A stretch of 64,000 bases of DNA from Nitrospinales bacterium. GTDB lineage: Bacteria; Nitrospinota_A; UBA7883; JACRGQ01. The position numbers and the translations under genes are program-made. Shown one piece after another: positions 24,097-59,323 of the stretch (position 1 is the stretch's first letter; every line of letters starts with the position of its first letter). The stretch is from the NCBI GenBank assembly GCA_023248535.1, contig JAHFEJ010000002.1, positions 2,714 to 66,713 of the forward strand, read 5' to 3'. The notes below the pieces were generated by a model. The model searched no databases. It was not told the origin of the DNA and was given only the letters and a program-made list of their open reading frames with translations.

Positions 24097-24150
24097 GAAG
24101 CTTTGAAAATATTTCTGGATCCCGGCTCAAGGCCGGGATGACAAAAAATC
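24097..24150 (+). other. Conserved motif AGCTTTGAAAATATTTCTGG + variable hairpin + GATGACA (copy 1 of 3)
   Basis: 22-nt identity with the copies at 48459 and 48589. Stem sequences differ but remain complementary. Confidence 0.55.
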
Positions 24151-24281
24151 GGCCCATGCGGGCCGATTGTGCGACAGGAATGTCGCACCTACCAAGGCCG
24201 ACGACACACTGGAAAGTGTGTCCTACCGGGGGAATGCCATTCACTTCAGCTTTGATATATGGATTTGATTTAGGCCAGCGA

Positions 24282-25256
24282 TCAGCGGGCGAGGGCGAAC
24301 GCGCTGTCGATGGCGAAGAGCATCGATGACGGATCGGCCTTCCCCTTCCCGGCGATGTCGAACGCCGTGCCGTGATCCACCGATGTGCGGATGAACGGCA
24401 GGCCGAGCGTGATGTTGGCGCACTCGCCGAACGACACCGCCTTGATGGCGACCAGCCCCTGATCGTGGTACATGGCCAGAAACGCGCCGTAGCGGTCGCG
24501 TACGCGCGGGGCAAAGCTGGTATCGGCGGGTAGCGGCCCCTCCGCATCGATCCCCGCCTTATGCGCCGCCGCGATGGCAGGGGCGATGATGCGCGCCTCC
24601 TCGCCGCCAAACAGTCCGCCGTCGGATGCGTGCGGATTAAGGCCGCAGACCCCTATCGGTTTTTTCAGGCGCAGCGATTTGTGCATGAGGGCCAGCTTTT
24701 CCAGTATCGCCTTTTGCGTCACCCCTTTGATGGCGTCGCGCAACGACAGGTGGGTGGTGAGCACCACCACTTTCATGGCGGGCGAGGCGAGCATCATGGC
24801 GTATTGTTTGCTGCTTGAAAGGGCCGCGAGCATTTCGGTATGCCCCGGATACGGGATGCCCGCCAGCGCCAGCGCTTTTTTGTGTATTGGCGCGGTGATG
24901 ATGCCGCGCAGTTCCCCCTTCAGCGAAAGTTCCACCCCGGCGGCGATGTAGACGGCGGCGGCCCGCCCGGCGGCGCGGTCGATCTTTCCCGCCGCCACCC
25001 CTTTTGCGGGGAGCGCGTGCATCTCCAAAAACGCCGCGTGGCCTGCGGGCGGCAGGTGGCGTGGGTCGTAAGGTGAAAGCTTCACGGCGCGCAAATAGCG
25101 CGATGCGGTGCGCGTAAGCGCCACACGGTCGGCAATCAGCACCAGCTGCCGCCGCCGTGCTGGCGGAACCAGCGCCAGCGCCTTCAGGGAAACTTCGGGG
25201 CCTACCCCGGCGGGGTCTCCCACCGTGATGGCGAACCGCATCGATTTCTTTCCCAT
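24282..25256 (-). CDS. pdxA: 4-hydroxythreonine-4-phosphate dehydrogenase
   Basis: 324 aa. PdxA family motifs (ITVGDPAGVGPE, HTEML, DHGTAFDIAGKG). Confidence 0.88.
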   Translation of the reverse strand: MGKKSMRFAITVGDPAGVGPEVSLKALALVPPARRRQLVLIADRVALTRTASRYLRAVKLSPYDPRHLPPAGHAAFLEMHALPAKGVAAGKIDRAAGRAAAVYIAAGVELSLKGELRGIITAPIHKKALALAGIPYPGHTEMLAALSSSKQYAMMLASPAMKVVVLTTHLSLRDAIKGVTQKAILEKLALMHKSLRLKKPIGVCGLNPHASDGGLFGGEEARIIAPAIAAAHKAGIDAEGPLPADTSFAPRVRDRYGAFLAMYHDQGLVAIKAVSFGECANITLGLPFIRTSVDHGTAFDIAGKGKADPSSMLFAIDSAFALAR

Positions 25257-25312
25257 TTCATTATTCTATCCCATTCCGGCCTGCCATCATCCGGTGAGGA
25301 TGTGGTAAAACT

Positions 25313-28249
25313 GTGCGGATGGAGACCATCACCCGCATCGCGCGCGACGGCAAACTGCACAACCTCGCCCCGCGCTGGATCGAGCGCGCCGCCCGCGCCT
25401 CCTTCGCGCCGGAGCTGGCGATGGTCAATTTCTCCCGCTTCATCGAAAAGGTGGAAGAACGCAATCCGCAGCTGCTCGCCCATTTCACCAAGCGGAACAT
25501 CCCGTGGATCGCCGCGCTGTTTTCCGGCAGCCAGGCGCTCACCGATATGGCGATGCGCGACCCGGAACTGCTCTTCTGGTGCCTCCAGCCGGGGGTGCTG
25601 CACTCCATCCGCTTCAAGCGCGACATGCGCCACGAGCGGTGGCTGATGTTCGAGCGCTGCGCCGGCCCGAAGGAGGCGCTTATCCACTTCAGAAACCGCG
25701 AACTGCTCCGCATCGGCTGGCGCGACCTGTTGAAGTGGGCCGGCACGGTGGAAACCATCGAAGACCTGTCGCGGCTGGCCGACATGGCCATTGAAGGGGC
25801 GATGACCGCCGCCGAAGGGGAAATGACCGAACGCTTCGGCCGCCCGCTGCACGCCGATGGCGCGCCGGGGCGCTTCATCGTGCTCGGCATGGGGAAGCTG
25901 GGCGGGCGCGAACTCAACTTCAGCTCCGATATCGACCTGATCTATTTCCACGATGACGACGAGGGGGAGACGGAGGGGGGCGCCGGGAAAACCGGGATGG
26001 AGCGCCAAAAAATAAGCCTGCGCGAATACTGGACGCGGATGGCGCAGCGGATGACCAGCCTGCTCAACGATGTCGGGCCGCAGGGGAACGTGTACCGCGT
26101 GGACATGAATCTCCGTCCCGAGGGGAGCCGCGGCCCGCTGACCTGTTCGCTGGCGGCGGCGGAGTTTTACTATGAATCGTGGGGCCAGCCGTGGGAACGG
26201 CAGATGATGGTCAAGGCCCGCGTGGTGGCCGGAAGCGAAAGCCTCGGCGACGAGTTTCACGCCATGATCCGCCCGTTCGTCTACCGCAAGTCGATCGATT
26301 TTTCAGCCTTGCGCGACATCCAGGCGATGAAGGAAAAAGTGGACAAGCAGTTGAAGACCGGCAAGGACCGCTACCGCCACAACGTGAAGCTGGGCAAAGG
26401 GGGCATCCGCGAGATCGAGTTCGTCATACAGGCGTACCAGCTGATATACGGCGGCAAGATGCCCTGGTTCGCCGAGACCAATTCGCTGAAGGCGCTGCAC
26501 CGCATCTTCGAGCGGGGGCTGATGGGGTACGCCCACTACGCCACGCTGGCCGACGCGCTTCTGTTCCTGCGCGACCTGGAAAACCGGATGCAGATCGCCT
26601 ATGGCCGGCAGGTGCAGATACTTCCCGAAGGGGACGGCCTGAAAGAGCTGGCGCTGAAAATGAACCTGGCCGGGCCGGAACAGCTGATGGCGGAATATGA
26701 ACGGCACACCGCCGGGGCCTATACCATTTTCACCGGCTTCTTCAAGGAAGAGGCCGGGGTGGATGAAACTCCCGCCGACCTCTTCCTCGATATCGACAAC
26801 GAAGAGGCCGCGCTGCCCCAACTGGCCGGGATGAAGTTCAAGGATCCGCAAGCGGCCCTCAACGCGCTGCTGCACATACGCGATGGCGAGCCGTTCAACC
26901 ATCCGTCCAACAAAAGCCGCAAGATCTTCATGCGGATACTCCCCGCTCTTATCAAAACCGCCGCCGCCCTGCCGCTGAAGGACCGCACCATCCAAAACCT
27001 CGACCGGTTTTTTTCCGCGCATCCGGGGCGCGAGGCGCATTACGAAATTTTCGAGCAGTTCCCGCCGTCCATCGACATCCTGCTCAAAACGCTCGGCCTG
27101 GCGCAAAACCTCGCCGACAGCACCCTGATACAGCACGACATGATAGACATCCTCAGCCAGGGGTACGAACCGGTGCGGCCCGAACCGCTGGCCGCCATCC
27201 CCGCCGAAATGCGCAGTTACGACCAACAGCTCGATTGGCTGCGCAGGGAGCGCAATTCCGAAAGCCTCCGCATCGGCATCGCCTACCTTACCTCGCATCA
27301 CGACCAGGCCCGGCTGATGGGGGACCTCACCCGTCTGGCGGCGTCGTTTGTCCAGCGCTGCCTCGACCTCATCGATGAACAGATGGGGCGGCAGGGGGAA
27401 GCGTTCGGCGGCAGGCTGGCCGTGATAGGCCTGGGCAAGATGGGGCGGCGCGCGCTCACGTACGGCTCCGACCTCGACATGATGTTCTTCTTCGACGACG
27501 GCGGCGTGAAGCCGATGGAATGCCTGACCTATTACACCACCCTGGCGCGGCGGCTGCTGGCGGCCGTGGGGGGCATTTCGCAGTACGGCCAGGCCTACCG
27601 CGTCGATCTCCGCCTGCGCCCCGAAGGGGAAAAGGGGAACATGGTCATCACCGTGGCCGCCGCGCGGGAATATTACGCCACCCGCGGCCAGTTGTGGGAG
27701 CGGATGGCGCTTACCGGCGCGCGGGCCATCGCGGGGGATACCGCCTTTGGCGCCGGGGCGCTTGCCGCTTTGGACGATTTCGTGTACGCCCCCGGCCTGT
27801 CGGCGGCCGATGCGGCGCTGATGGAAAAAATGAAGAAAAAAATGGAGCGCGAAAAAATACGCGACAAGAAAAAGATAGCCATCAAATACGGCCCCGGCGG
27901 CATCGTGGATATTGAGTTCTTCGCGCAGAAGATCAAGCTTGCCCGCGTGAAAGACGTTCCCGCCCTGCGGATGTGCAACACGCTGGAGACGCTCCTCATG
28001 GCGCGCGGCGGCGGCTGGGTGGGCGGCGATATCGACGGCATCATCGCCTCGTACAAACTGCTGCGCCGCGTGGAGATACACATGCGGATGGAATACGGGC
28101 GCGGCGCGGAAACGCTGCCCGAATCGCCGGAGGAGATGAAAATCCTCGAGGAGATACTCTCCCCCTTTGAACAGCTTGGCGGCCCGCTGGCCGATACGAT
28201 GGACGCGGCGATGGCGCGGGCGCATAAGGCCATAGCCGCCGCGTCATGA
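25313..28249 (+). CDS. glnE: Bifunctional glutamine synthetase adenylyltransferase/adenylyl-removing enzyme
   Basis: 978 aa. Two GlnE nucleotidyltransferase domains (..GKLGGRELNFSSDIDLIYF.. and ..GKMGRRALTYGSDLDMMFF..). Confidence 0.88.
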   Translation: MRMETITRIARDGKLHNLAPRWIERAARASFAPELAMVNFSRFIEKVEERNPQLLAHFTKRNIPWIAALFSGSQALTDMAMRDPELLFWCLQPGVLHSIRFKRDMRHERWLMFERCAGPKEALIHFRNRELLRIGWRDLLKWAGTVETIEDLSRLADMAIEGAMTAAEGEMTERFGRPLHADGAPGRFIVLGMGKLGGRELNFSSDIDLIYFHDDDEGETEGGAGKTGMERQKISLREYWTRMAQRMTSLLNDVGPQGNVYRVDMNLRPEGSRGPLTCSLAAAEFYYESWGQPWERQMMVKARVVAGSESLGDEFHAMIRPFVYRKSIDFSALRDIQAMKEKVDKQLKTGKDRYRHNVKLGKGGIREIEFVIQAYQLIYGGKMPWFAETNSLKALHRIFERGLMGYAHYATLADALLFLRDLENRMQIAYGRQVQILPEGDGLKELALKMNLAGPEQLMAEYERHTAGAYTIFTGFFKEEAGVDETPADLFLDIDNEEAALPQLAGMKFKDPQAALNALLHIRDGEPFNHPSNKSRKIFMRILPALIKTAAALPLKDRTIQNLDRFFSAHPGREAHYEIFEQFPPSIDILLKTLGLAQNLADSTLIQHDMIDILSQGYEPVRPEPLAAIPAEMRSYDQQLDWLRRERNSESLRIGIAYLTSHHDQARLMGDLTRLAASFVQRCLDLIDEQMGRQGEAFGGRLAVIGLGKMGRRALTYGSDLDMMFFFDDGGVKPMECLTYYTTLARRLLAAVGGISQYGQAYRVDLRLRPEGEKGNMVITVAAAREYYATRGQLWERMALTGARAIAGDTAFGAGALAALDDFVYAPGLSAADAALMEKMKKKMEREKIRDKKKIAIKYGPGGIVDIEFFAQKIKLARVKDVPALRMCNTLETLLMARGGGWVGGDIDGIIASYKLLRRVEIHMRMEYGRGAETLPESPEEMKILEEILSPFEQLGGPLADTMDAAMARAHKAIAAAS

Positions 28250-29349
28250 ACATCAGCGAGGCCGATGCCCGTATCGCCCTCAACGCGCTTTCCAACATCG
28301 GCCCCGCCAATTTCCACCACCTGCTGGCGCGCTTCGGTTCCGCCGCCGCCGCGCTGGCCGCCGATGCCGGTGCGCTTGAGGGAACTCCCGGCATCGGCCC
28401 CAAGGCGGCCGCCCAGATAGCGGCGTGCGACGGCGCAAAGACCGCCGCGCGCGAACGGGCCGCCGCGGAAAAGCAGGGGGTGGCCATCGCCACGCTGTTG
28501 GACGATTCCTATCCGGCCAACCTGAAAATGGCGCACACGCCGCCGCCGGTGCTCTACATCGCCGGAGAAATCCGGCGCGAAGACGCGCTGGCGGTGGCGG
28601 TGATCGGCACCCGCAGCCCGTCCCCCTATGGCCGGATCGCCGTTGAAAACTTCACCGCCATGCTGGCGAAGCGCGGCCTCGCCATTATCAGCGGCATGGC
28701 GCGCGGCATCGATACGATGGCCCACCGCGCCGCGCTGGAGGCGGGCGGCCGCACCATCGCGGTGCTGGGCAGCGGCCTGGACCGGTGCTATCCGCCGGAA
28801 AACGGCGAGCTGTTCAAACAGATCGCCCGATCAGGGGCGGTCATCTCGCAATTCCCCTTCGGCGCGGAGCCGGACAAGCGGAACTTTCCCATACGCAACC
28901 GCATCATCAGCGGCCTTTCGCTGGGCGTGCTGGTGATCGAAGCGGGCGAAAAGAGCGGCACCATGAGCACCGCCTACGGCGCGCTGGACGAGGGACGCGA
29001 GGTTTTTGCCGTGCCGGGGCGCATCGATTCCCCCAAGTCGATCGGCTGCAACCGGTTGCTCCAGAAAGGGGCCAAGCTGGTCATATCGCCGGACGACGTG
29101 GTGAACGAGTTTCCCCCGGAAGTGCGGGCGGCGCTTGCCGCCCCCTCCGCGGGTGAAGTGCGCGCGCCGCTTTCACCGGACGCGGCGCGGATCGTGGCCC
29201 TCCTCGGCGACGGCGAACGGCATGTGGACTATCTGGTGGAAGGGATCGGCCTGCCGAGCGGCGTGGTGCTCGGCATCCTGCTGGAGATGGAACTGCGCGG
29301 CACGGTGCGGCAACTGCCGGGAAAACTGTTCGCCCTGCTGAAAAAATAA
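28246..29349 (+). CDS. dprA: DNA processing protein DprA (Smf)
   Basis: 367 aa. Rossmann-like DprA core (AVIGTRSPSPYG, GMARGIDTMAHRAAL). ATGA overlap with glnE. Confidence 0.85.
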   Translation: MNISEADARIALNALSNIGPANFHHLLARFGSAAAALAADAGALEGTPGIGPKAAAQIAACDGAKTAARERAAAEKQGVAIATLLDDSYPANLKMAHTPPPVLYIAGEIRREDALAVAVIGTRSPSPYGRIAVENFTAMLAKRGLAIISGMARGIDTMAHRAALEAGGRTIAVLGSGLDRCYPPENGELFKQIARSGAVISQFPFGAEPDKRNFPIRNRIISGLSLGVLVIEAGEKSGTMSTAYGALDEGREVFAVPGRIDSPKSIGCNRLLQKGAKLVISPDDVVNEFPPEVRAALAAPSAGEVRAPLSPDAARIVALLGDGERHVDYLVEGIGLPSGVVLGILLEMELRGTVRQLPGKLFALLKK

Positions 29350-29356
29350 AAATCTT

Positions 29357-29425
29357 TTTCCCGCTGTCATCCCGGCCGGAGTTTACCCCCGCGAAGGCGG
29401 GGGCGGGGATGACAGCGGGAAAATA
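29357..29425. terminator. Bidirectional terminator: 18-bp perfect inverted repeat TTTTCCCGCTGTCATCCC...GGGATGACAGCGGGAAAA with a nested hairpin
   Basis: Between the convergent dprA and OMP genes. A/T tracts on both sides. Confidence 0.7.
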
Positions 29426-29447
29426 TTCTCCGCTATGCCAGGAACGC

Positions 29448-30239
29448 CTAGAACGACGCGCCGATGGCCGCGTACGGGCCGCTGAAACTGATGCTGGTCT
29501 TGAGGTTGTCGGTATCCAGCGTGATCTTCTGCGAGCTGTAGCCAAGCGCCAGATAGAGCACCGGTACCGGATGAATCCCCACTTCCACGCCCCAGTCGGT
29601 GATGCTGTTGCTCCCGGCGCTCAGGGTTTTATATTGCGCGTTGAAGGAAAGGAAATGGATGGGATAGACGCCGAGGCCGACATAGAGCATGGGAACCGGG
29701 ATCGAGGCGGTTTTTTCCTCCGTCTTGTTCGCCACGCCCGCCACGGTGCCGGTCAGCTTGCCGCTGAACGACAGCGAGCGGATGTTGATGCCGATCTCCG
29801 GATCGATAATGCCGGCGGTGGCCGTTTTGATTAACGGTATGTCGTAGAAAAGGCCGAAATCGACCGCGTTCAACGTCAGCTCCGTGTGGATGAGCGTGTT
29901 GGCCTGGAAGGTTTGGCCGCCGTACGTGAGCGCCGCCGTGCCGGTCTTGTCCCCCGAAAAACTCATCGGCAGGTAGCTGATGTAGAAATTGGGGATGATC
30001 GGGATGGCGTGCTTGATCTTAAGCTGCCCCGTGATGTCGCCGTGATCGCCCAGATTCAGGGTGTCTTTAAGGTTCGCGGAAGTCGCCGCCGACGATCCGC
30101 CGCCAACCTCCACCGTGCCGGACGGGGAGCGGGTGGTGGAACCCACGCTGAGGCTGACGTCCAGTCCCGGCAGCGCGTACGCGCGCGGAACGGCGGTCAG
30201 CGTCAAAATGCAAAATGCAAAAAATACTTTTTTAAACAC
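29448..30239 (-). CDS. Outer-membrane beta-barrel protein (OmpW/OmpA-like, 8-10 strands)
   Basis: Signal peptide. Alternating amphipathic strands. C-terminal aromatic residue (…AIGASF). Confidence 0.65.
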   Translation of the reverse strand: MFKKVFFAFCILTLTAVPRAYALPGLDVSLSVGSTTRSPSGTVEVGGGSSAATSANLKDTLNLGDHGDITGQLKIKHAIPIIPNFYISYLPMSFSGDKTGTAALTYGGQTFQANTLIHTELTLNAVDFGLFYDIPLIKTATAGIIDPEIGINIRSLSFSGKLTGTVAGVANKTEEKTASIPVPMLYVGLGVYPIHFLSFNAQYKTLSAGSNSITDWGVEVGIHPVPVLYLALGYSSQKITLDTDNLKTSISFSGPYAAIGASF

Positions 30240-30332
30240 GTTATTCTCCTAATCGCCAATTACCGGTGAATTACTTTCCCACTTGTCATTGCGTATCATA
30301 TCCCCAAAAGAGCGCTCCGGGAAAGCTTTCGC

Positions 30333-31068: not shown

Positions 31069-31326
31069 ATGTTTAAGAAATTTGGCCTTTTGGCAGTGGT
31101 CGTGATGTTCGCGGGCGCGCTTGCAGTTCTTCCGGCTTGCGAGAAGAAAGAAGAAGCCCCGGCAGCTCCGGCCCCGGCGGCAGCCCCGGCTCCCGAAGCA
31201 GCCCCGGCAGCGGCTCCGGCTCCCGAAGCAGCCCCGGCAGCGGCTCCGGCTCCTGAAGCAGCCCCGGCAGCAGCCCCGGCCCCCGCAGCGGCACCGGCTC
31301 CGGCAGCAGCCCCGGCCCACAAGTAA
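31069..31326 (+). CDS. Small Ala/Pro-repeat lipoprotein
   Basis: Lipobox LPAC. Three 30-bp tandem nucleotide repeats encoding APEAAPAAAP. Confidence 0.6.
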   Translation: MFKKFGLLAVVVMFAGALAVLPACEKKEEAPAAPAPAAAPAPEAAPAAAPAPEAAPAAAPAPEAAPAAAPAPAAAPAPAAAPAHK

Positions 31327-31340
31327 GCCGATCCTTAAAA

Positions 31341-31369
31341 AGGGGGCGGATTTCCGCCCCCTTTTTTTT
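31341..31369 (+). terminator. Rho-independent terminator
   Basis: AGGGGGCGGA TTTC CGCCCCCT followed by T9. Confidence 0.85.
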
Positions 31370-31586: not shown

Positions 31587-31713
31587 AACCACAGAGACAC
31601 ACGAGACACAGAGAAAAACATCATCTTTTTTCCCCTTTTACGAAGGAGGGGAAAGAGGGGAATGCAACGGGTAAAAGACCCTTCCCCGTCTGTGCCTCCG
31701 TGCCTCTGTGGTT
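31587..31713. repeat. Palindromic intergenic element copy D
   Basis: AACCACAGAGACACACGAGACACAGAG...CTGTGCCTCCGTGCCTCTGTGGTT. The core contains a CCCCTTTTACGAAGGAGGGG hairpin. Confidence 0.7.
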
Positions 31714-31789
31714 TGTCCCATTATTTTTTGCCTGAATTATTTTGAGACCCTTGATAATTCTTCCCTCCGCAAACAAAGCGGGATAAATT

Positions 31790-33157: not shown

Positions 33158-33189
33158 AGCTATTGATCCCCGCATTTATAATGTCCCAT

Positions 33190-33240
33190 ACATGGGTGGC
33201 GCGGACACTCTTGTCCGCGTTGTGCCCGCAAGGGCACAAC
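33190..33240. other. Paired hairpins GGACACTCTTGTCC + GTGCCCGCAAGGGCAC (recurs at 48397-48430)
   Basis: The same two-hairpin arrangement with small substitutions occurs in a second intergenic region. Confidence 0.4.
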
Positions 33241-33347
33241 TGTTTAATTGCCGCGCGGGTATTGCGCGCCCTGCCGGACGCGCCACGGGCAAGAGTGCCC
33301 GTGCCACCAAATGCAACTTTCTTAAATAAAACATTATTTAACGCCCA

Positions 33348-35216
33348 ATGGCTATGAAGCGGTTTGACGTTATCGTGGCCGGGGGCGGCCACGCCGGATG
33401 CGAAGCGGCGCACGCCGCCGCGCGCCTCGGCTGCGCCACCGCGATGGTCGTCACCGACAGGCTCTCCATCGCCCGGATGAGCTGCAACCCCGCCATCGGC
33501 GGTCCCGGCAAAAGCCAGATCGTGCGCGAGATAGACGCGCTGGGCGGCCTGATGGCGCGCGTAACCGACCGCGCCGGGCTGCAATGGCGCACCCTCAACG
33601 GCGCCAAAGGGGCCGCCGTCCGCGCCTGCCGGGCGCAGGCCGACACCATCGAATACGAAACGGCGATGCGGGAAGAGCTGGCCGCCACGCCAAACCTTTC
33701 CATCATCGAAGGAACTGTAAAAGATATTCTGGCAAAGGACGGCGCGGTGCGCGGCGTTCTTTTGCTTTCTGGAGATGAGCTGGCGGCCAATGCGGTGATT
33801 CTATGCACCGGCACGTTCCTCAACGGCCTGTTGCACACCGGCCTTACGCAAACACCGGGGGGGCGCGTGGGCGAGGGGCCGTCGGCGCACCTTTCCGATT
33901 CGCTTAAAAAACTTGGCCTCACGCTTGGCCGCCTGAAAACCGGCACCCCCGCGCGGCTGCACAAGGATTCCATCAACTGGGATGCGGCCCAAGAACAGCC
34001 GGGCGACACGCCGCCGCCGCCGATGTCGTACTTCACCAAAAAGATCGGGCGCGAACAGTTGCCCTGCCACATCACCCACACCAACGCCCGCACGCACGAG
34101 ATCATCCGCACCGGGTTTGGCCGCTCGCCGCTGTTCACCGGCGTGATACAAGGGGTGGGGCCGCGCTACTGTCCCAGCATAGAGGACAAAGTGGTGCGCT
34201 TTCCCGAACGGCTTTCGCATCACATCTTCCTCGAGCCGGTCTCGCGCCACAACGATGAAATCTACCCCAATGGCATATCCACCTCTCTGCCGGAGGACAT
34301 TCAGGACGAATTCCTCCGCTCCATCCCCGGCCTCGAAGAGGTAAAGGTCATCCGCTACGGCTACGCGGTGGAATACGATTTTGTGCCGCCAACGCAAACC
34401 TACCCCACGCTGGAATCGAAGGCGGTGGGCGGCCTCTATCTGGCGGGACAGATCAACGGCACCAGCGGATACGAGGAGGCGGCGGGGCAAGGGCTGTTGG
34501 CCGGCATCAACGCCGCCCGCAAGGTGCGCGGCGAAGAGCCGGTCATTTTGTCACGCGCTGAAAGCTACATCGGCGTGATGGTGGACGACCTCACCACCCT
34601 CGGCACCGAAGAGCCGTACCGCATGTTCACCAGCCGCGCCGAACACCGCTTGGTGATGCGGCAGGATAACGCCGACCAGCGGCTGTGCGAACTGGGCCGC
34701 ATCATCGGCCTGTTGCGAGAAGAACAGTATCGGGAATATCGGGAAAGGCAGGGGCGGATTCAATCGCTGGTGAAGCGGTTGCGGGGGGAGTTTCTCAATC
34801 CCACGCCGGAAACAATGACTTTGCTGCGCAATAGCGGACTCCCGCCGGTGGAGATGTCCATCGGCATCGCTCAATACATGAAACGCCCTGATGTGGCGCT
34901 GAAACGCGACTCCGTCTTTGGCGATCTGGCGGCATTCGACGATGCCGACATCGAGCGGGCCGAAACGGAGATAAAATACGAAGGGTACATCGCCCGGCAA
35001 AACCGCTGGATAGAGCAGATGGGGAAGATTGAGAACATGCCGCTGGAAAAAGAAATGAATTACATCGGCATCTCCGGCCTCTCCGTCGAGCTGCAACAAA
35101 AGTTGGAAAAGGTGAAACCGCTCACCTTCGGTCGGGCGTCGCGCATCGCCGGCATGACCCCTGCCGCGCTCTCCATCTTGATGATCCATCTCAAAACACG
35201 GGGACGAAATGTTTAG
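33348..35216 (+). CDS. mnmG: tRNA uridine 5-carboxymethylaminomethyl modification enzyme MnmG (GidA)
   Basis: 622 aa. FAD-binding DVIVAGGGHAGCEAA. Conserved GidA C-terminal domain. Confidence 0.92.
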   Translation: MAMKRFDVIVAGGGHAGCEAAHAAARLGCATAMVVTDRLSIARMSCNPAIGGPGKSQIVREIDALGGLMARVTDRAGLQWRTLNGAKGAAVRACRAQADTIEYETAMREELAATPNLSIIEGTVKDILAKDGAVRGVLLLSGDELAANAVILCTGTFLNGLLHTGLTQTPGGRVGEGPSAHLSDSLKKLGLTLGRLKTGTPARLHKDSINWDAAQEQPGDTPPPPMSYFTKKIGREQLPCHITHTNARTHEIIRTGFGRSPLFTGVIQGVGPRYCPSIEDKVVRFPERLSHHIFLEPVSRHNDEIYPNGISTSLPEDIQDEFLRSIPGLEEVKVIRYGYAVEYDFVPPTQTYPTLESKAVGGLYLAGQINGTSGYEEAAGQGLLAGINAARKVRGEEPVILSRAESYIGVMVDDLTTLGTEEPYRMFTSRAEHRLVMRQDNADQRLCELGRIIGLLREEQYREYRERQGRIQSLVKRLRGEFLNPTPETMTLLRNSGLPPVEMSIGIAQYMKRPDVALKRDSVFGDLAAFDDADIERAETEIKYEGYIARQNRWIEQMGKIENMPLEKEMNYIGISGLSVELQQKLEKVKPLTFGRASRIAGMTPAALSILMIHLKTRGRNV

Positions 35217-35219
35217 AGT

Positions 35220-35558
35220 AACCACAGAGGCACAGAGACACAGACGGGAAAGGTGCGGCATAACCCGAAAGGTTGTCATACTGAGGGAGCGCTGGCGACC
35301 GAAGTATCTCTTTCCGGCAAGAGCGCTGAAGGTTTTCTCTGTGTCTCCGTGCCTCAGTGGTGATTTCTCATTTTCATATCGGCACCATAATGTTTGGAAT
35401 AACCACCGAGACACAGAGCCACAGACGGGAAAGGGGCGGCATAACTTGGAAGGTTGTCATACTGAGGGAGCACTGGCGACCGAAGTATCTCTTTCCGGCA
35501 AGAGCGCTGAAGGTTTTCTCCGTGCCTCCGTGCCTCTGTGTCTCCGTGCCTCTGTGTT
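35220..35558. repeat. Tandem pair of palindromic elements (E1 35220-35362, E2 35401-35558) sharing an ~95-bp conserved core
   Basis: Both copies carry GACGGGAAAGG(T/G)GCGGCATAAC...GGTTGTCATACTGAGGGAGC(G/A)CTGGCGACCGAAGTATCTCTTTCCGGCAAGAGCGCTGAAGGTTTTCTC between the family TIRs. About 90% identity. Lies between mnmG and rsmG. Confidence 0.8.
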
Positions 35559-35590
35559 TATTTTTTCCCTACGCATGATGCAAGGTTGCC

Positions 35591-37125: not shown

Positions 37126-37129
37126 AATC

Positions 37130-38083: not shown

Positions 38084-38123
38084 ATTGGCAATATTCTAAC
38101 AGCATTTTCATTTTACCGCCTCG

Positions 38124-39257: not shown

Positions 39258-40267
39258 TAAAAGAAGCAATTTCAAAGATTATTGCCAGCCAAGACCTGCC
39301 AGAGGCGGAGATGGTTCAGGTCATGGAAGAGATCATGACCGGGGCAGCCACCCCCGCCCAGATCGGCGCTTTTCTCATCGCTCTTCGGATAAAAGGGGAG
39401 ACGGTGGACGAGATAACCGGTGCTGCGTGGGTGATGCGGGAGAAAGCGGTGAAGATCGACACGCCCGCTGGCAAAACGGTCGTTGATACCTGCGGCACCG
39501 GCGGAGATTCATCCGGGACGTTCAACATCTCCACCACAGCCGCTTTCATCACCGCTGGCGCGGGATTGGTCGTGGCGAAACATGGGAACAAATCGGTCTC
39601 CAGTAAATCGGGCAGCGCCGATCTTTTGCAAGCCCTCGGCATTAACATCGAAGCCGAGCAGAGCCGCGTGGAAGAGTGCCTGCGGCAGTGCGGAATAGGC
39701 TTTCTTTTTGCCCCGATGATGCATGGAGCGATGAAATACGCCATCGGCCCTCGCAGAGAGATAGGGGTGAGAACAATATTCAATCTGCTGGGTCCGCTCA
39801 CCAATCCGGCCGGTGCCGAAAACCAGGTGATCGGGGTTTATTCCGATACCCTTACCGAGCCATTGGCCAACGTGTTGAAAAGGTTGGGATCAAAGCATGT
39901 TTTTGTGGTACACGGACACGATGGTTTGGATGAATTGACCCTCACGGCCAAAAGCCGGGTGAGCGAGCTGAAAGATGGAAAAGTAACGACTTATGATTTC
40001 GATCCGCGGGAATACGGCTTTTCTTATTGCAGTCCGGCGGATTTAAAAGGGGAAGACCCGCAAGCCAACGCCAAAATCACCCTTGGAATCCTGAAAGGGG
40101 AAGAAAAGGGGCCAAAAAGGGACATTTCGGTTTTGAATGCGGCTTTTTCAATTGTGGCCGGGGGCAAGGCGAATAGTATTAAAGATGGGGTGGAACTTGC
40201 AAAAACATCCATCGCATCTGGTGCAGCACTGTCGAAACTGGAAGAGATGAGACGCCTTACGAATTAG
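39254..40267 (+). CDS. trpD: Anthranilate phosphoribosyltransferase
   Basis: 337 aa. GTGGD and KHGN motifs. ATGA overlap with trpG. Confidence 0.9.
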
Positions 40268-40269
40268 CG

Positions 40270-41225
40270 CACTCCGTCTGGCATGCTTGCAATATATAAT
40301 AGCCCCACGTTAGATATATGGCCTTTACGACTTATTTATACAACGCAATTTTCTATAAACCCTTACAGTTAGATCACTGTATCCTGTGTTGGCCATACAT
40401 GCCCGTACACTATAAGGCGCAATACTAAATTATTCATGGTCATTTGTATATTTCAATACACATGGCATTTTTAGAAGTTTTTGATACTTAGGCACATTTC
40501 TTTGCCCACCGTAATTGCAATGTAAGTCTTATATCATACATTAATACCATTTATATAACATTTCATGCGACTGACCAAAGAGACAGTATATACGGTGACA
40601 ACTTTTATATATAAAACTCCAGAATTGGCACTCCGATGTCGAGTGAAGACCAATATTCATTGCCGATAGGATAGCCGAACTCATGCATATGCTAGCTGAA
40701 ATATATTTTTTCAATGTTGAGGTCACTTTTCAGCACTTGGGTGCACTTATTAGCCCATAGCAGCGTGGCTCCAGATGCAGATCGCTACGTCTGGATTTTT
40801 GGCAATGGGCCGATCTGAAACCAGCTTAGCCGTCATGGAAAACTGAAATATGTCAACATATTCCATTAATGTCTTCGCGTGATCTTCGACCTTCCTCTTT
40901 GTTAGTTTGAGCCAAACTTCCTCGGTTATTGCCATAATTTTTATTAGAAAACCGAGCCTTCATCGCCCAAGATGCCTTGAGAGCGGTGTGGATTTATTGA
41001 AAGATCAGAATTGCTGACCAATCGGTATGTAACATTCACGTATTGATACACGTAATGTCGCAACGCCCATAATAATAACATATAGCCTGTAAATATGCCT
41101 GAAAAATTGATTTAGGCTCTTGCCATTCAACTGTTTTCCCAATGAAAAATTAAATTTCAGCCCATTATTCCAATATTTATACCAGCAAAATATTGATTAC
41201 AGGGTATCACCGTCTTATATCTTCC
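40270..41225. other. ~950-bp AT-rich (about 40% GC) non-coding island
   Basis: Sharp compositional drop against ~65% flanks. Only short, poorly supported ORFs. Confidence 0.7.
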
Positions 41226-41227
41226 TC

Positions 41228-43789
41228 ATGATGGATTTTAACAGGTTTACGATCAAGGCCTCGGAAGCGATACAAGGAGCGATGCAGCTTGCAGGGAGCC
41301 TATCCCACCAGGCGGTCACCCCCCTACACCTCCTCCTTAGCCTCATAAAGCAGGACGGGGGACTGGTGCCGAACATCCTTACCCGGCTTGAGGTTTCCCC
41401 CGAAAAGCTTGCCGGGGAGATAAAAAGTGCACTGGAGTCCCTGCCGCGCGTCACCGGTGTTGAGGGCGCCTACCTTTCCCCCGAAGCCAAGAAGGCGCTT
41501 GAGGCGGCGGAATCGGAGGCGGCCCAGCTTCACGACGAATACCTGAGCACCGAGCACTTGCTCTTGGGGGTTCTTGATCAGCCCTCGGTGAAAAAGCTGC
41601 TCAAGATCACGCGTGACGAGGTTTTGAAAGCACTGGCCTCTATCAGGGGAAGCCAGCGTGTGACCGACGCCGACCCGGAAGGAAAATACCAGGCCCTTGA
41701 AAAATACACCGCCGATCTCACCCGGCAGGCGGCCCAAAACAAAATAGACCCTGTGGTTGGCCGCGAAGACGAGATCCGCCGGATGATGCAGATTCTCAGC
41801 CGCCGCACCAAGAACAACCCCTGCCTGGTTGGGGAACCGGGAACCGGCAAAACCGCCATCGTGGAGGGTTTGGCCCGAAAAATAATCGAAGGGGACGTTC
41901 CCAACACAATTAAAAACAAACGGTTACTCTCGCTTGATATGGGGGCGCTCATCGCCGGCACCAAATACCGGGGCGAGTTTGAAGACCGTCTGAAAGCGGT
42001 CATAAAGGAGATTGAGTCGGCCGAGGGGGAGGTGATCCTCTTCATCGACGAATTGCACACCATCGTGGGGGCTGGCGCGGCGGAAGGCTCGATGGACGCG
42101 GGCAACCTGCTGAAACCGGCCCTTGCGCGGGGCAAGCTCCACACCATCGGCGCCACCACGTTGAAAGAGTACCGCAAACATATCGAAAAAGATGCCGCCC
42201 TGGAGCGCCGCTTCCAGCCCGTGATGGTGGAAGAGCCATCCGTAAAAGACGCCATCTCGATTCTGCGCGGCATCAAGGAGAAATATGAACTGCATCATGG
42301 CGTGCGCATCCGTGATAACGCCATCGTGGCGGCGGCAACCCTTTCCGCCCGCTATATCACCGACCGCTTTCTGCCTGATAAGGCCATTGACCTGATGGAC
42401 GAGGCGGCCAGCGGCCTCAAAATGGACCTTGAAAGCCGTCCCGCCGAGCTGGATCGGCTCGACCGGAAAATACGCCAGATGGAGATCGAGCGCGCCGCCC
42501 TGAAAAAAGAATCCGACGAGGCGAGCAAAAAGAGGCTGCAAGAGCTGGAAAAGGAGCTTTCGCTATCCGCCGAGGAATTGAAGACGGTCGAGCTGCAATG
42601 GCAAAACGAAAAAGGGGTTATCGACGCCATCAAGGGGGCGAAAGAGGAGATCGGCCGCCTGAAAGACGGGGCGGAAAAGGCCGAGCGGACGGGCGAACTG
42701 CAAAAGGTCGCCGAGATCCGCTACGCCAAAATCCCCGAACAGGAAAAACTGATGCGCGAGACGCAGGCAAAGCTGGCCGCGCTGCATACAAACCGCTCCA
42801 TCCTCCGCGAAGAGGTGACGGAAGAGGATATCGCCGCGGTGGTTTCCCGATGGACGGGCATCCCCGTCACCCGGATGTTGACGGAAGAGAGCCAAAAACT
42901 CGCGCACCTTGAAGAATCCCTTGCCCGGCGGGTGGTCGGCCAAAAACCGGCTATTAAGGCAGTGAGCAACGCGGTGCGCCGCAGCCGCGCCGGGTTGCAG
43001 GAAGAGGGGCGGCCGATGGGGAGCTTCATCTTCCTGGGGCCAACCGGCGTGGGAAAGACCGAGCTGGCCAAGGCGCTGGCGGAGTTTTTATTCAACGACG
43101 AGCGGAACATTATCCGCGTCGATATGAGCGAATATATGGAAAAACACGCCGTGGCGCGGCTGATCGGCTCGCCCCCCGGCTATGTGGGATACGAGGAGGG
43201 GGGGCAGCTCACCGAAGCGGTGCGCCGCCATCCCTACAGCATTATGCTGTTCGACGAAATTGAAAAAGCCCACTCCGATGTTTTCAACCTGCTGCTGCAG
43301 GTGCTGGACGAAGGGCGGCTCACCGATGGCAAGGGGCGGACGGTCGATTTCCGCAACACGGTGTTGATAATGACCTCGAACATCGCGGCGGAGCAGATAG
43401 CCGAGTTTAGGGACGACCCCGGGCGGCAGCGCGAAGAGGTCTTCGCGGCGCTGCGGCGGCTCTTCCGGCCCGAGTTCCTCAACCGCATCGACGACACCAT
43501 CATCTTCCAGCACCTCGGGCGCGAAGAGCTGGCCGAGATCGTCCGGATACAGGTGGAGAGGGTGGCGAAACGGCTGGAGCAAAAGAAGATCGCCCTGCGC
43601 CTCACCAAGCGCGCCACCGGCCAGCTTGCCGTAGCGGGTTACGATCCTGCATTTGGCGCGCGCCCCCTCAAGCGGGTCATCCAGAACGAGATACTGGACG
43701 AGTTGGCGTTGCGTATTGTGGAAGGAAAAATTGCTGAAGGGAATGACGTGACCATAGACTACAAAGACGGATGGGTGATAACCGTTTAG
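41228..43789 (+). CDS. clpB: Chaperone ClpB (AAA+ disaggregase)
   Basis: Two AAA+ modules ([16 protein letters not shown]), the middle coiled-coil domain and a Clp N domain. Confidence 0.93.
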
Positions 43790-43909
43790 CCGGTTTTTCT
43801 TCCGGTTCCATTTCGATTTCCTTTTTCGATGGATCGAAAAAATAGGATAAACTGGACGCGTGTTCTTCAAAATGCTAAACGCGCAATACACTATCGAGGG
43901 GAACGTGAA

Positions 43910-44344: not shown

Positions 44345-44430
44345 TTACAGCGGAACTATTCGCCACATGGCGCGGGCAAGCCGTACTGCGGAGTTTGTCC
44401 GCCATAACGGCTTGCACGCGATAAAAGAAA

Positions 44431-44826: not shown

Positions 44827-45035
44827 AAAGAACCCCTCCTTTGTGAATAAGCCAAAAACCCCAACACCCTGCACTGAGGAATAATTGTACCGTAAAAGAT
44901 AACGGTCATCCACTGCGGGCGAAACCCCGGCCCGCGAAAACCGGCGGCGCTGAACGGACGGGGAAACTGTCTTTTTAACCATACCTTAACAAAAAGGCCA
45001 TCAAAGTTTCACCGACACCGCCGTATCATGGCGGC

Positions 45036-45776: not shown

Positions 45777-45870
45777 CGCAAATCCATCCTGTTGGCCATC
45801 AAGGGCGGAGTGCCGGAAGCGGGCGATTATGAAAAGGGATGACCTTGTTGGAAAAGTCCGCCGGGAAATA

Positions 45871-45891
45871 AAATTGGCTGGCCACCAAGGA
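45871..45891. repeat. Direct repeat of the tRNA-Gln 3' end (AAATTGGCTGGCCACCAAGGA)
   Basis: Identical to 46029-46049. A further inverted partial copy TTCGAATCCTTGGTG lies at 46002-46016. Confidence 0.75.
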
Positions 45892-46032
45892 ACGCCCACA
45901 GGCGCGGTCGCATCACGCTCCCGCTTTGCGGGCCGCCTTGCTTGCTATGCCGGACATCCTGTCCGTCATGCGCTCCCTAACCGGTCACGCCGCGCGCTTG
46001 CTTCGAATCCTTGGTGCAAGTTATGGAAAAAT

Positions 46033-46106
46033 TGGCTGGCCACCAAGGATTCGAACCTCGATAGGCAGATCCAGAATCTGCTGTCCTACCATTAGACGAG
46101 TGGCCA
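46033..46106 (-). tRNA. tRNA-Gln (anticodon CUG)
   Basis: Manual fold: U1-A72 acceptor (TGGCCAC/GTGGCCA), D-arm GTCT/GGAC, anticodon stem GCAGA/TCTGC with loop TTCTGGA, T-arm CGAGG-TTCGAAT-CCTTG, discriminator G, encoded CCA. Confidence 0.85.
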
Positions 46107-46121
46107 ATTATGCGGTCAATG

Positions 46122-46325
46122 TCACTCGGAGAGGGGGTCGTCCTTCCCGTCCGCCGCCTCTTCCTGGTGGCGGTGGCACGAGTTCAGGATGAATTCCTCG
46201 GCGCTCATCAGTGCGCCTTTCACGTCATACAGGGAAAGGTGTGGATACCGCGTTATCACCAGCTCGGCAACTTCCTTAGCCAGGAAGATCCGCGCGGTAT
46301 CGTTGTCCCTGTTCCGATTATGCAT
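46122..46325 (-). CDS. Hypothetical 67-aa protein
   Basis: ORF next to the tRNA. No recognisable motifs. Confidence 0.3.
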   Translation of the reverse strand: MHNRNRDNDTARIFLAKEVAELVITRYPHLSLYDVKGALMSAEEFILNSCHRHQEEAADGKDDPLSE

Positions 46326-46398
46326 GCTCTCCTCAGTCCGGTATTTATATCAAATGCCGAAGGCGAAATCAAACAAATGCGTTTTTGGGGCGGCTGAA

Positions 46399-47394
46399 TC
46401 AGCGGGGCAACGGCTCCACAGTGACGCCACCGGGCGGCGCGGACGCCGGGGGGGCCGCATCAAGCTCGCGCAACCGGAGTTCCATCTGTTGCGCTTCGTA
46501 CTCGTAGCGGTTGGCGCGGTATCCGTCCCGCGCAGTGGTGAAAGATACCTTCGCCTTTGCTGTATCCCCCAATGCGATGTAAAGCCGCCCGAAATATTCG
46601 TTAGCGGCGGCTTCCCAATAGCCGTCCTTCGCACTTTTGATCTTCGCCAGCCCCTGCGTCAGTTTCGCCTCCGCCCCGGCGAAATCCAGCTGCGCCAGCA
46701 GAACATTCCCCGTATTTAGCAACGCAATGCCGGCGGTCAGGGGATTTTTCAGCCTTTCTCCCAGCACGGCGGCGCGGCTATAGGCATCCAGCGCGTCGGC
46801 ATAATCCTTTTTGTCGAAAAGGATCGTTCCCATGTTGTTGAGCGCGGTGCCAGCCGCCGCTACCTCCCCTTCGTCCACGGCGCGGCGGTAATATTCCAGC
46901 GCCTTTTCGATTTCCCCCCGCTCGCGGAAAAGCGACGCCATATTCGCCAGGGTCAGGCCTCGCGTCCGCATATCCTGCGTGACGATGGCGTAGGCCAGGG
47001 CGGTATCGTAGCGTTCCAGCGCCTTGACGTAATCCTTTTCCTTTTGCAGCAGCTGGCCGAGGTCGCTGTTGAGAACCATCGTCTGATTTGGCGTATCGGC
47101 CAGTGGCAGGGCCGCCCGCAGCTGTTCCATCGCTTTAGCGGTCATTCCTGCGCCGGCATAGGCCCTGCCAAGGCAGTGGCGCGATTCGAAATAGTCGCCT
47201 TTCGCTTCCACCGCTTGTTGTCCGGCGGCGATGGCGGCGGAGAAATTTTTCTTCTCCAGCGCTTCGGCGCAGGTGGCGGCCTCTTTTTTGTACACCGGCG
47301 TGAAAAAGCTGATCGCACAGGCGGGGGCCGGGCGAACCAGCAGCAAAGCCAGTGCGGCGGCGAACAGTAATCCATGCCGTTTCATGGAATCCAT
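46399..47394 (-). CDS. Secreted tetratricopeptide-repeat protein
   Basis: Signal peptide MKRHGLLFAAALALLLVRPAPACA. At least six TPR-like helical pairs. Confidence 0.7.
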   Translation of the reverse strand: MDSMKRHGLLFAAALALLLVRPAPACAISFFTPVYKKEAATCAEALEKKNFSAAIAAGQQAVEAKGDYFESRHCLGRAYAGAGMTAKAMEQLRAALPLADTPNQTMVLNSDLGQLLQKEKDYVKALERYDTALAYAIVTQDMRTRGLTLANMASLFRERGEIEKALEYYRRAVDEGEVAAAGTALNNMGTILFDKKDYADALDAYSRAAVLGERLKNPLTAGIALLNTGNVLLAQLDFAGAEAKLTQGLAKIKSAKDGYWEAAANEYFGRLYIALGDTAKAKVSFTTARDGYRANRYEYEAQQMELRLRELDAAPPASAPPGGVTVEPLPR

Positions 47395-47458
47395 TTTGCG
47401 GCGAAACCCTTCTACTTGCAAATTTCCCCTGTTTGGCCGATGCTGGATGCAACATAGT

Positions 47459-48367
47459 ATGAACGGCGGCAAAACCAAAATCATCGCGGCATTCGCGGCG
47501 GTCTACATTCTTTGGGGTTCCACCTACCTCGCCATCCGCTTCGCCATAGAAACCCTTCCGCCATTCTTGATGTCCGGCGTCCGCTTTGTCATCGCCGGGG
47601 GGCTGCTCTTCGGCTTCATGGCGATGAAGGGGGAGAAGTGCCCCACGTCGCGGCAGTGGCGGTCCACCGTTATCATTGGCGGATTGCTGCTGCTCGGCGG
47701 CAACGGCGGCGTTGTTTACGCGGAAGAGCGGGGAGTGGCATCCGGCCTCACCGCGTTGCTGGTGGCTACGGTGCCCATCTGGATGGCGCTGCTCGACTGG
47801 AAAAGCAGGGGCCGCCTCAATCCCGGCGCGTGGGTGAGCGCGGGACTGGCGCTCGGCTTTGCGGGGGTTGCGCTGCTGGTGCTGCAAAACGGCGTGGTGG
47901 CGGTGCACATCGATCCCGTCGGGCTGGCATCGCTGGTGGCGGCGTCGGTGGCGTGGGCATACGGCAGCATTTGGGCGCGCACCGCCGATCTGCCCCGGTC
48001 ATCGCTGCAAACCACCGGCATGCAGCTGCTGATGGGCGGGCTGTGGCTCTGCATCGCGGGGTTGCTGAAAGGGGAAGCGGCGCATGTGGAGGCGGCGGAG
48101 TGGAGCCTCCGCTCGGTCGGTGCGTTTTTTTATCTTATCTTTTTCGGCTCCATCATTGGCTACAGCGCGTATGTGTATATATTGAAGATGAGCACTCCGG
48201 CCAAGGCGGGAACGTATGCCTATATCAATCCTGCCATCGCGGTGTTTTTGGGCTGGGCGCTGGCGGGGGAAAAGGTGACCGGCGTTACGATACTGGCCGC
48301 GATGATCATCATCTTCTCGGTGGCGCTCATTACCATCCGTCCGCGCGAAGCCCCCGCAAGGGAGTAG
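47459..48367 (+). CDS. EamA/DMT family transporter
   Basis: 10-TM drug/metabolite transporter with two EamA repeats. Confidence 0.75.
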   Translation: MNGGKTKIIAAFAAVYILWGSTYLAIRFAIETLPPFLMSGVRFVIAGGLLFGFMAMKGEKCPTSRQWRSTVIIGGLLLLGGNGGVVYAEERGVASGLTALLVATVPIWMALLDWKSRGRLNPGAWVSAGLALGFAGVALLVLQNGVVAVHIDPVGLASLVAASVAWAYGSIWARTADLPRSSLQTTGMQLLMGGLWLCIAGLLKGEAAHVEAAEWSLRSVGAFFYLIFFGSIIGYSAYVYILKMSTPAKAGTYAYINPAIAVFLGWALAGEKVTGVTILAAMIIIFSVALITIRPREAPARE

Positions 48368-48458
48368 GCAGGTAGGCGCCCCTTCCGGGTGGGACGGACA
48401 CTCCTGTCCGTCATTGGCCCGCGAGGGCCAACAAAGCATTGCCGCTGCCGCGGCGATA

Positions 48459-48512
48459 AGAGAGCTTTGAAAATATTTCTGGATCCCCGTTTTCACGGGG
48501 ATGACAGGAAAA
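48459..48512 (+). other. Conserved motif AGCTTTGAAAATATTTCTGG + hairpin + GATGACAGG (copy 2)
   Basis: Stem CCCCG/CGGGG here. Stems are CCCGGC/GCCGGG in copy 1 and TGCCGGA/TCCGGCA in copy 3. Confidence 0.55.
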
Positions 48513-48588
48513 TCATTTTTCGGGGACAGCGCCGCCGCAATGGGGGTAATATGACGCGATAATAATATCGTGTTATTAACGCTACTTA

Positions 48589-48643
48589 AGAAAGCTTTGA
48601 AAATATTTCTGGGTGCCGGATCGGTGTCCGGCATGACAGAAAT
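48589..48643 (+). other. Conserved motif copy 3, immediately 5' of cbiR-like gene
   Basis: Ends 12 nt before the RBS/start of the gene at 48658. Confidence 0.55.
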
Positions 48644-59321: not shown

Positions 59322-59323
59322 GC

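Follow-up and report, generated by a model that had tools for sequence, protein, structure and literature searches.

A repeated box-and-hairpin motif of an uncultured Nitrospinota lineage is most probably a variant SRM repeat of the Ssn nuclease system

SsnA of Neisseria meningitidis is a 94-amino-acid GIY-YIG protein that acts as a site-specific nuclease (Chenal et al., Nat Commun 2025, PMC11893778). Its target is the NTS repeat CGTCATTCCCGCGMAVGCGGGAATCYRG, which is bound solely as single-stranded DNA (ssDNA) and on one strand only; the enzyme does not interact with double-stranded DNA (dsDNA) or RNA, and it cuts strand-specifically a few nucleotides upstream of the repeat (PMC11893778). NTS is an oriented extension of dRS3, which has the sequence ATTCCC-N8-GGGAAT and forms the palindromic core; cleavage depends chiefly on the three bases 5' of the palindrome, and binding on the C that comes directly after it (PMC11893778). 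The NTS consensus in Neisseria is CGTCAT-TCCCGCG..GCGGGAA-TCYRG. Ssn homologues, single-domain GIY-YIG proteins of ~95 amino acids defined by a tblastn E-value below 1e-10 and by the catalytic residues Y6, Y17 and E64, number in the thousands (cd10448), with an Ssn-related motif (SRM) nearby in 71% and on both sides in 42% (PMC11893778). In Neisseria the Ssn system lowers transformation by NTS-bearing DNA, and the authors remarked both on the insertion sequence (IS)-like NTS-ssnA-NTS layout and on an analogy with REP/RAYT systems, whilst describing the mode of repeat spread as unknown (PMC11893778). The main text of that study makes no mention of Nitrospinota. Here we analyze a box-plus-hairpin motif present in three copies in a 64,000-nucleotide (nt) stretch of DNA from a Nitrospinales bacterium (assembly GCA_023248535.1, contig JAHFEJ010000002.1, positions 2,714 to 66,713), which we refer to as the window. 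Homologues of the PdxA protein place the window in an uncultured Nitrospinota lineage. The motif is very probably a lineage-specific, NTS-like SRM repeat, lying in reverse orientation and joined to a 20-nt AT-rich extension. We identify it as an SRM because the same unit flanks ssn homologues as inverted copies in relatives of the window and because the same or a very similar core accompanies ssn homologues in four other genera.

The motif begins with a 20-nt box, AGCTTTGAAAATATTTCTGG, which is followed in all three copies by a hairpin and then by (G/C)ATGACA (Table 1). The box occurs exactly three times in the window, always on the + strand, and no further match is found when up to three mismatches are allowed. 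None would be expected by chance, and none was seen in 100 shuffled sequences. The copies were first noticed in an annotation of the window made from its letters without database searches (the first-pass annotation), and they are real. The stretch that they all share is nevertheless 20 nt rather than the 22 nt claimed there, and the GATGACA tail ascribed to every copy holds for copies 1 and 2 but reads CATGACA in copy 3. At copy 2 the AAATC that follows is native flank, since relatives without the element have AAATC too. In a search of the window with a covariance model of 13 family members, these three sites were recovered with E-values of 1e-15 to 1e-17 (73.8 bits and E 2.9e-17 for copy 1, 64.8 bits for copy 2 and 75.1 bits for copy 3) and there was no match beyond them.

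The window hairpins have stems of 7-9 bp and loops of 3-6 nt. With the flanking AT included, the stems are ATCCCGGC/GCCGGGAT, ATCCCCGT/ACGGGGAT and (G)TGCCGGA/TCCGGCA(T), and are thus longer than first given, although the compensatory changes noted between them are confirmed. Three stem positions differ between copies 1 and 3, with full compensation at two of them and A-T against G.T at the third. Far from being unrelated, the stems are variants of one homologous sequence. Our alignment of 13 copies from the window and its relatives (alignment A2), on which both the covariance model and the covariation test are based, extends this result. Within it 99.1% of stem cells pair, compared to just 33-51% in slid controls, and both sides have changed in 4 of the 9 pairs. 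The covariation score is 0.39 as against 0.10 in shuffles, with none of 500 shuffles reaching the observed value. The predicted covariation in a larger alignment is therefore seen, and the argument of the first-pass annotation that the motif is functional rather than a product of chance is upheld, as is a structural constraint on the hairpin. CTGG is invariant throughout the alignment, as are the G and C of GAC, the A of which is nearly so.

The identity of the element is best seen where it accompanies a gene. Inverted copies of the unit flank a GIY-YIG gene at four loci in three related Nitrospinota assemblies. In the relative GCA_040960095.1, two inverted units with their boxes facing inward flank a gene for a 96-amino-acid GIY-YIG protein (locus L058). 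A second locus in the same assembly (L066) has the same inverted layout, its GIY-YIG protein being 92% identical to that of L058, and the arrangement recurs round a GIY-YIG gene (L074) in GCA_023248495.1, with ~75% DNA identity to the window. The GIY-YIG proteins of the relatives carry the Pfam domain PF01541 (precomputed assignment) and match, in tblastn, a Neisseria gonorrhoeae locus with 57% identity (E 1e-25). This locus encodes a 94-amino-acid open reading frame (ORF) amid NTS repeats, and our comparison is accordingly with the gonococcal orthologue of SsnA and not with the meningococcal protein. In the protein alignment (A3), the columns equivalent to the catalytic Y6, Y17 and E64 of the gonococcal ORF are invariant. 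On both counts, the partner protein is an SsnA homologue. A PDB sequence search and an NCBIfam scan with the Ssn homologue returned no informative match.

A search by tblastn with the relatives' GIY-YIG protein against plasmid and chromosome records identified homologues in many genera. At four of the five loci that we read, the ssn homologue lies beside inverted hairpin units whose core, C[TC]GG-AT[CT]CC…GG[GA]AT-GA[CG], is identical to that of the Nitrospinota unit or closely resembles it (Table 1), and at the fifth, on a Planktothrix plasmid, the inverted repeats have a different core. The model built from Nitrospinota copies detects the Photobacterium, Neisseria and Azospirillum units weakly (E 0.0015-0.009), and these other taxa have ~20-nt extensions of their own beside C[TC]GG. 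On the minus strand the window copies all read (C/T)TGTCAT-hairpin-CCAG, in agreement with the Neisseria NTS consensus, and continue into AAATATTTTCAAAGCT. In NTS orientation, both the GTC and the C bordering the palindrome are invariant in the 13 aligned copies, where they take the form of GAC and CTGG. On this mapping, what the first-pass annotation had treated as the defining box is a clade-specific AT-rich extension on the 3' side of an SRM.

Table 1. Copies of the element and associated features in the window, and the related core at ssn loci of other genera
Feature	Position and strand	Sequence or composition	Remarks
Copy 1	24099-24143 (+)	box 24099-24118; hairpin ATCCCGGCtcaagGCCGGGAT 24119-24139; tail GACA 24140-24143	
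Copy 2	48463-48507 (+)	box 48463-48482; hairpin ATCCCCGTtttcACGGGGAT 48483-48502; tail GACAG 48503-48507	
Copy 3	48593-48639 (+)	box 48593-48612; hairpin GTGCCGGATcggtGTCCGGCAT 48613-48634; tail GACAG 48635-48639	
Accessory hairpin and purine linker	24072-24098 (+)	hairpin ATCGGCCCttacgGGGCCGAT 24072-24092; linker GGGGGA	directly left of copy 1
Possible box remnant	24248-24262 (+)	AGCTTTGATATATGG	5' half of box alone, without hairpin; low confidence
Palindrome	29364-29415 (.)	arms CTGTCATCCCGG and CGGGGATGACAG; central hairpin CCCCCGCgaagGCGGGGG	possibly related
Promoter-like block	48523-48552 (+)	GGGACA-N18-TAATAT	preceded by near-palindrome GAAAATCATTTTTC; context, outside the element
Azospirillum lipoferum		CTGG-ATCCCCGCcttcGCGGGGAT-GACGG	units on both sides of ssn homologue
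Neisseria gonorrhoeae		C[TC]GG-ATTCCCGCctgcGCGGGAAT-GACGG	units on both sides of ssn homologue
Photobacterium		CTGG-ATTCCCGCctgcGCGGGAAT-GAC (CTGG-ATTCC..GGAAT-GAC)	every detected unit lies downstream of the gene
Sinorhizobium meliloti		CTGG-ATTCCTGTGAcgagCACAGGAAT-GAGGG	CTGG-AT[CT]CC..GG[GA]AT-GAG variant

The Nitrospinota unit shares several general features with NTS and SRM repeats. It is a hairpin repeat of 20-50 nt, oriented by a GTC that directly precedes the palindrome and a C(C/Y)RG that comes next after it, it is multi-copy and intergenic, and inverted copies of it flank an ssn gene of ~95 codons whose product keeps the catalytic Tyr, Tyr and Glu. It differs in having stems of the GTGCCGGG and ATCCCSG types in place of ATTCCCGC, in its highly conserved 20-nt AT-rich extension, which falls outside the SRM definition, and in its host, an uncultured Nitrospinota lineage. 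In Neisseria, the units of dRS3 repeats and of Neisseria intergenic mosaic elements (NIMEs) likewise carry family-specific ~20-nt extensions by C[TC]GG, and their accumulation gives the spacers a mosaic structure. Their extension and stem sequences are different, however, and the units at the Neisseria locus occur in both orientations on both sides of ssnA, compared to three copies in the 64 kb of the window. Further parallels are provided by the REP/BIME repeats of RAYT transposases (REPtrons) and the subterminal hairpins of IS200/IS605 elements. These too have hairpins recognized as ssDNA, with compensatory changes in their stems; they accumulate as mosaics in spacers, and inverted repeats enclose a gene. 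In these systems, by contrast, the partner is a Y1 HUH and not a GIY-YIG enzyme, the Nitrospinota unit lacks their GTAG head, and Ssn is not known to carry out transposition. At the Azospirillum locus (A. lipoferum 4B plasmid AZO_p3, 255506-255799), paired SRM doublets lie on both sides of the ssn homologue, which is itself located between sufB and sufC, inside an Fe-S cluster assembly operon.

A number of observations are difficult to accommodate in the SRM assignment. No GIY-YIG or ssn gene was found by tblastn in the window itself. The published degenerate SRM pattern, HGTCWYN(0-2)YYVSBRHN(0-5)WNVSBRGN(0-2)RNCYNB, which was hand-built from 29 genomes (PMC11893778), matches copy 2 alone among the window copies, from 48506 on the minus strand; one or two stem positions depart from it in copies 1 and 3, as in every copy from the relatives. 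The 20-nt box is the best-conserved part of the element, yet it is unexplained by the published model. In 10 of the 13 aligned copies the stem ends in a G.T pair when read on the box strand, and because this becomes an A/C mismatch on the strand in NTS orientation, either of the two strands may be the one that folds. Finally, divergence among the spacers compared (window, L053, L058 and L063) is too great for exact element borders or target-site duplications to be defined. The pattern was also run on controls, where it gave 4 matches for Azospirillum, 8 for Neisseria, 4 for Photobacterium and 0.37 for window shuffles. We take the element to be a variant SRM which lies outside the coverage of the hand-built pattern.

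A scan of genome and metagenome collections with a 19-mer returned 47 loci, of which 44 are plain chance matches in unrelated, mostly low-GC DNA; the only true copy, L002, comes from a Nitrospinales assembly (GCA_023248495.1, which also holds L074) and has an identical box, the hairpin GTGCCGCAtcaagTGCGGCAT with one more compensated pair, and GACAAAG. A covariance-model search, the kind of check that had been proposed, recovered ~17 non-redundant copies in ~140 kb of the relatives' DNA, some of them with diverged boxes. All copies for which we inspected the surroundings are located between called genes or ORFs. A full-text search of the literature for the box sequence gave no match. One other product of the 19-mer scan (L003, with the same sequence in L042) was rejected as a copy because, although it resembles the element, it lies inside an ORF of 1007 codons. 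At this site, 1200-1270 of L003 in a Desulfobacterales assembly, the 19-mer match leads into an inverted repeat of 7 bp and then TGACAGAAAT, a sequence that agrees with the copy 3 tail over 10 nt; the likeness is probably a coincidence.

The gene context of the window copies is as first described. Copy 1 is downstream of hppA, in a spacer of 556 nt that separates hppA (21713-23725, +) from pdxA (24282-25256, -), two convergent genes whose 3' ends face each other. Copies 2 and 3 are preceded by a + strand gene and followed by a cbiR-like gene, the protein from whose ATG at 48658 is an exact database entry (P0001); cobU and cobT come next. The distance given for the proximal copy requires correction from 12 to 18 nt, this being the interval between the end of the GACAG of copy 3 and the ATG. 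We compared the orthologous cbiR-cobUTS loci of relatives with CbiR proteins 79-86% identical to that of the window, aligning the promoter-like block by eye for the window and loci L049, L053 and L055. A block consisting of GAAAAnCATTTTT, GGACA, a gap of 17-18 nt and TAATAT is common to all compared loci, whether or not they have the element, and spans 48508-48552 in the window, 5290-5335 in L049 and 4829-4883 in L053. On the basis of its sequence, this combination of near-palindrome, GGACA and TAATAT may be a promoter plus operator; a consensus promoter scan of 48340-48700 returned nothing above threshold, the promoter-like block included. Copy 2 is immediately upstream of the block, and copy 3 is between the -10-like TAATAT (48547-48552) and the ribosome-binding site of cbiR.

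The element itself varies between these loci. L053 and L055 (CbiR 81-82% identical) have no element at the orthologous sites but keep the operon and the upstream block, and for this reason the operon and its probable promoter are independent of the element. L057 has a near-identical hairpin at the copy 3 site, with one loop base different, and L049 has just the remnant AGCTTTGA-tgttttttt-TGACAG, from which the hairpin has been lost. These comparisons show the element to be an insertion-type feature, variable between close relatives. Other arrangements are seen elsewhere in the group. Positions 4433-4535 of L066 hold a solo right end of the unit, whilst at the homologous flanking gene the window has a 28-nt spacer alone and a different gene beyond it, and positions 1-175 of L053 hold an inward-facing doublet of units without a gene. 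With respect to the features expected of miniature inverted-repeat transposable elements, presence/absence polymorphism is thus clear, but borders cannot be defined in such diverged spacers. A second, larger hairpin is found after the first unit downstream of each ssn gene and in the L066 solo unit (L058 1890-1936, L066 3366-3403 and 4497-4533, L074 4287-4333). Its pattern, GTGCCG(G)..CCCCGTGCCGCG..CGGGG..CCGGCATGACA, resembles an SRM stem with a small hairpin nested in the loop.

The first-pass annotation proposed a small RNA, a regulatory leader or a protein-binding site, with B12-dependent expression as one of its tests. A cis-regulatory RNA, for example one exerting B12-responsive control over cbiR-cobUTS, would fit with the location of copies 2 and 3 upstream of cbiR, with copy 3 being probably in the 5' untranslated region (UTR), with the covarying stem, and with the + strand G.T pairs, which would be G.U pairs in RNA. 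If transcribed, the copy 3 region would form a stable extended stem-loop (minimum free energy -36.7 kcal/mol, z -2.65). This same fold leaves the ribosome-binding site unpaired, however, and copy 1 lies between convergent 3' ends. Other copies are at unrelated loci and flank a nuclease gene, and the relatives described above keep the operon and promoter-like block without the element. Rfam, at its gathering threshold, matches just a tRNA in the whole window and no cobalamin riboswitch, and a permissive search of 48350-48700 gave chance-level matches alone (E >= 4.5). We consider an RNA of this kind very unlikely, and with it B12-dependent control by the element. Among the functions originally suggested, a protein-binding site comes closest, by analogy with SsnA. 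Since the units flank ssn genes, since SsnA does not interact with RNA or dsDNA, and since the evidence bearing on a leader is negative, we would by the same analogy read the covariation as that of a DNA hairpin recognized by the nuclease and not of an RNA structure. A more limited proposal, compatible with the SRM assignment, is that copy 3 and perhaps copy 2 have been exapted by the cbiR operon, where they might stabilize the mRNA in the form of a 5' stem-loop or serve as a barrier beside the promoter. Copy 3 has the -10-like TAATAT, which is conserved, on one side and the ribosome-binding site on the other, its hairpin is stable, and L057 keeps the element at the same site with a single loop difference. 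We nevertheless regard exaptation as unlikely given that L053 and L055 lack the element, that L049 has lost the hairpin, and that there is no sign of a regulatory switch in the sequence.

Two further explanations assign the motif to different DNA-binding proteins. A classical REP or REPIN mobilized by a RAYT, that is by a Y1 HUH transposase and not a GIY-YIG nuclease, is suggested by the abundance of REP-like hairpins headed GGTAG or GGTGG in the same spacers (a RAYT-type system may exist in the genome) and by REPtrons, in which a gene is also flanked by inverted hairpins (PMC11893778). But the box-plus-hairpin unit has no GTAG or GTGG head, the gene that it flanks in L058, L066 and L074 is a GIY-YIG gene, and its core matches the NTS and SRM repeats of other phyla, which also flank GIY-YIG genes; a RAYT origin is accordingly extremely unlikely. 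The near-palindrome GAAAATATTTC within the box might instead be read in dsDNA by a transcription factor or nucleoid protein. Such an operator would account for the box being AT-rich, near-palindromic and better conserved than the stem, and another near-palindrome of similar sequence, GAAAATCATTTTTC, is native to the cbiR upstream region, directly beside its -35-like hexamer. Against this, the box is never seen apart from the hairpin and tail, some copies are located between genes that converge, and GAAAATNATTTTC-like sites number 8 in the window versus 3.7 expected and show no pattern relative to genes. We judge an operator to be highly improbable.

Several simpler candidates were also rejected. 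A Fur-like or operator palindrome is barely enriched in the window. The element is not an intrinsic terminator, there being no T run after the hairpin on either strand, and a scan of 48340-48700 reports an unrelated 5-bp stem alone; the A run that follows copy 1 belongs to the neighboring hairpin, a terminator-like site on the opposite strand. A promoter (TTGAAA as a -35 element, or sigma-54) would have inconsistent spacing to any conserved -10 across the copies. A short ORF starting at the ATG of ATGACAG has, by eye, neither a conserved frame nor a Shine-Dalgarno sequence.

If the element is an SRM, then its activity would be expected to resemble that of NTS. When the DNA becomes single-stranded during replication, repair or uptake, the minus strand would fold into a 7-8 bp hairpin. 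By analogy with SsnA, the clade's Ssn would bind this minus-strand hairpin and the C that follows it on ssDNA, and would cut a few nucleotides 5' of the GTC, which corresponds to a position just right of GACAG in + strand coordinates. Any effects on neighboring genes would be by-products, with copy 3 adding a stable stem-loop to the presumed cbiR 5' UTR whilst leaving the ribosome-binding site uncovered. For the multiplication of the repeat, the leading idea would be an IS-like or REP/RAYT-like process driven by Ssn. It is possible, though we think it rather doubtful, that the unit is an actively mobile non-autonomous element in which the box serves as a second recognition module, or a cleavage-joining module, for the clade's Ssn. 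The presence/absence polymorphism, the solo ends, the gene-less doublets and the scars of the form AGCTTTGA..TGACAG are all consistent with mobility of this kind. To our knowledge, transposition based on a GIY-YIG nuclease has not yet been demonstrated for any bacterial element, and a mobile unit, if confirmed, would be direct evidence for an Ssn/SRM transposition system built on such an enzyme.

The SRM assignment documents an Ssn/SRM system in an uncultured Nitrospinota clade, and it averts a plausible mis-annotation in which a nuclease-associated DNA repeat is taken for a B12 leader or small RNA. It also indicates that the published degenerate SRM pattern overlooks most copies of this variant. 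The conserved extension bears on how so small an enzyme reads its site, and the insertion polymorphisms on how the repeat multiplies.

Some of the sequences listed in Table 1 may be related to the element. Hairpins of the ATCGGYCC type with a purine linker, like the one to the left of copy 1, also adjoin the box in L053 (-28) and L058 (-1293) and are found upstream of ssn in L074. The possible box remnant is preceded by a hairpin and CCTACCGGGGGAATG, and a similar linker, TACCGGGGGAATG, precedes the L002 copy. The arms of the 29364-29415 palindrome may be SRM-like half-sites; the palindrome has no box and the covariance model does not match it. It forms part of a longer palindrome (29340-29432) between two convergent genes, a dprA-like gene ending at 29349 and a gene ending at 29448, and a T-rich run follows on the minus strand. 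This longer palindrome is plausibly a terminator built from SRM-like halves.

The window also contains other repeat families. A separate family of REP-like hairpins is present in at least nine copies, at 23836-24227, 33195-33310 and 48385-48412. These have a GGTAG or GGTGG head, an 8-bp stem that is variable in sequence yet complementary, and a 4-nt loop, and on the other strand read as a hairpin followed by CCACC or CTACC. We take the GGTRG head to resemble that of RAYT-associated REPs. The hppA-pdxA spacer is 206 nt in L063 as against 556 nt in the window, and REP-like hairpins make up most of the growth. Small hairpins, TTGGCGCnnnGCGCCAA and TTGGCCCgcgaGGGCCAA, at 23892-23908, 23995-24011 and 48414-48431 each begin one base after a GGTRG-headed hairpin, so that the two together form a recurrent two-hairpin module. 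Another family has an 8-nt periodicity (13196-13295, 15625-15732, 31688-31719, 35208-35565 and 56833-56958), with an arm AACCACAGAGGCnCAGAG... facing ...CTCCGTGCCTCTGTGGTT in long imperfect palindromes; within 35208-35540 a 152-nt stretch is repeated 181 nt apart with 91% identity. A tandem repeat (GCAGCCCCGGCTCCCGAA...) with 12/18/30-nt periodicity occupies 31132-31334, just before a strong terminator-like hairpin at 31337-31366, and would encode a proline/alanine-rich stretch if in a coding frame.

In L063 (16700-16988) and L064 (7890-8180), an EamA gene is followed by a tRNA-like sequence and two copies of TCACCCACCATATTTTCC ~380 nt apart, a pair that resembles attachment-site repeats belonging to a small element that has integrated there. 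The window has REP hairpins and copy 2 after its EamA gene instead. The window also has two low-GC stretches, 40001-42000 (0.47) and 58001-60000 (0.50), compared to ~0.58 overall. The second of these begins where synteny with L066 ends (58223), which suggests that it is a foreign insertion.

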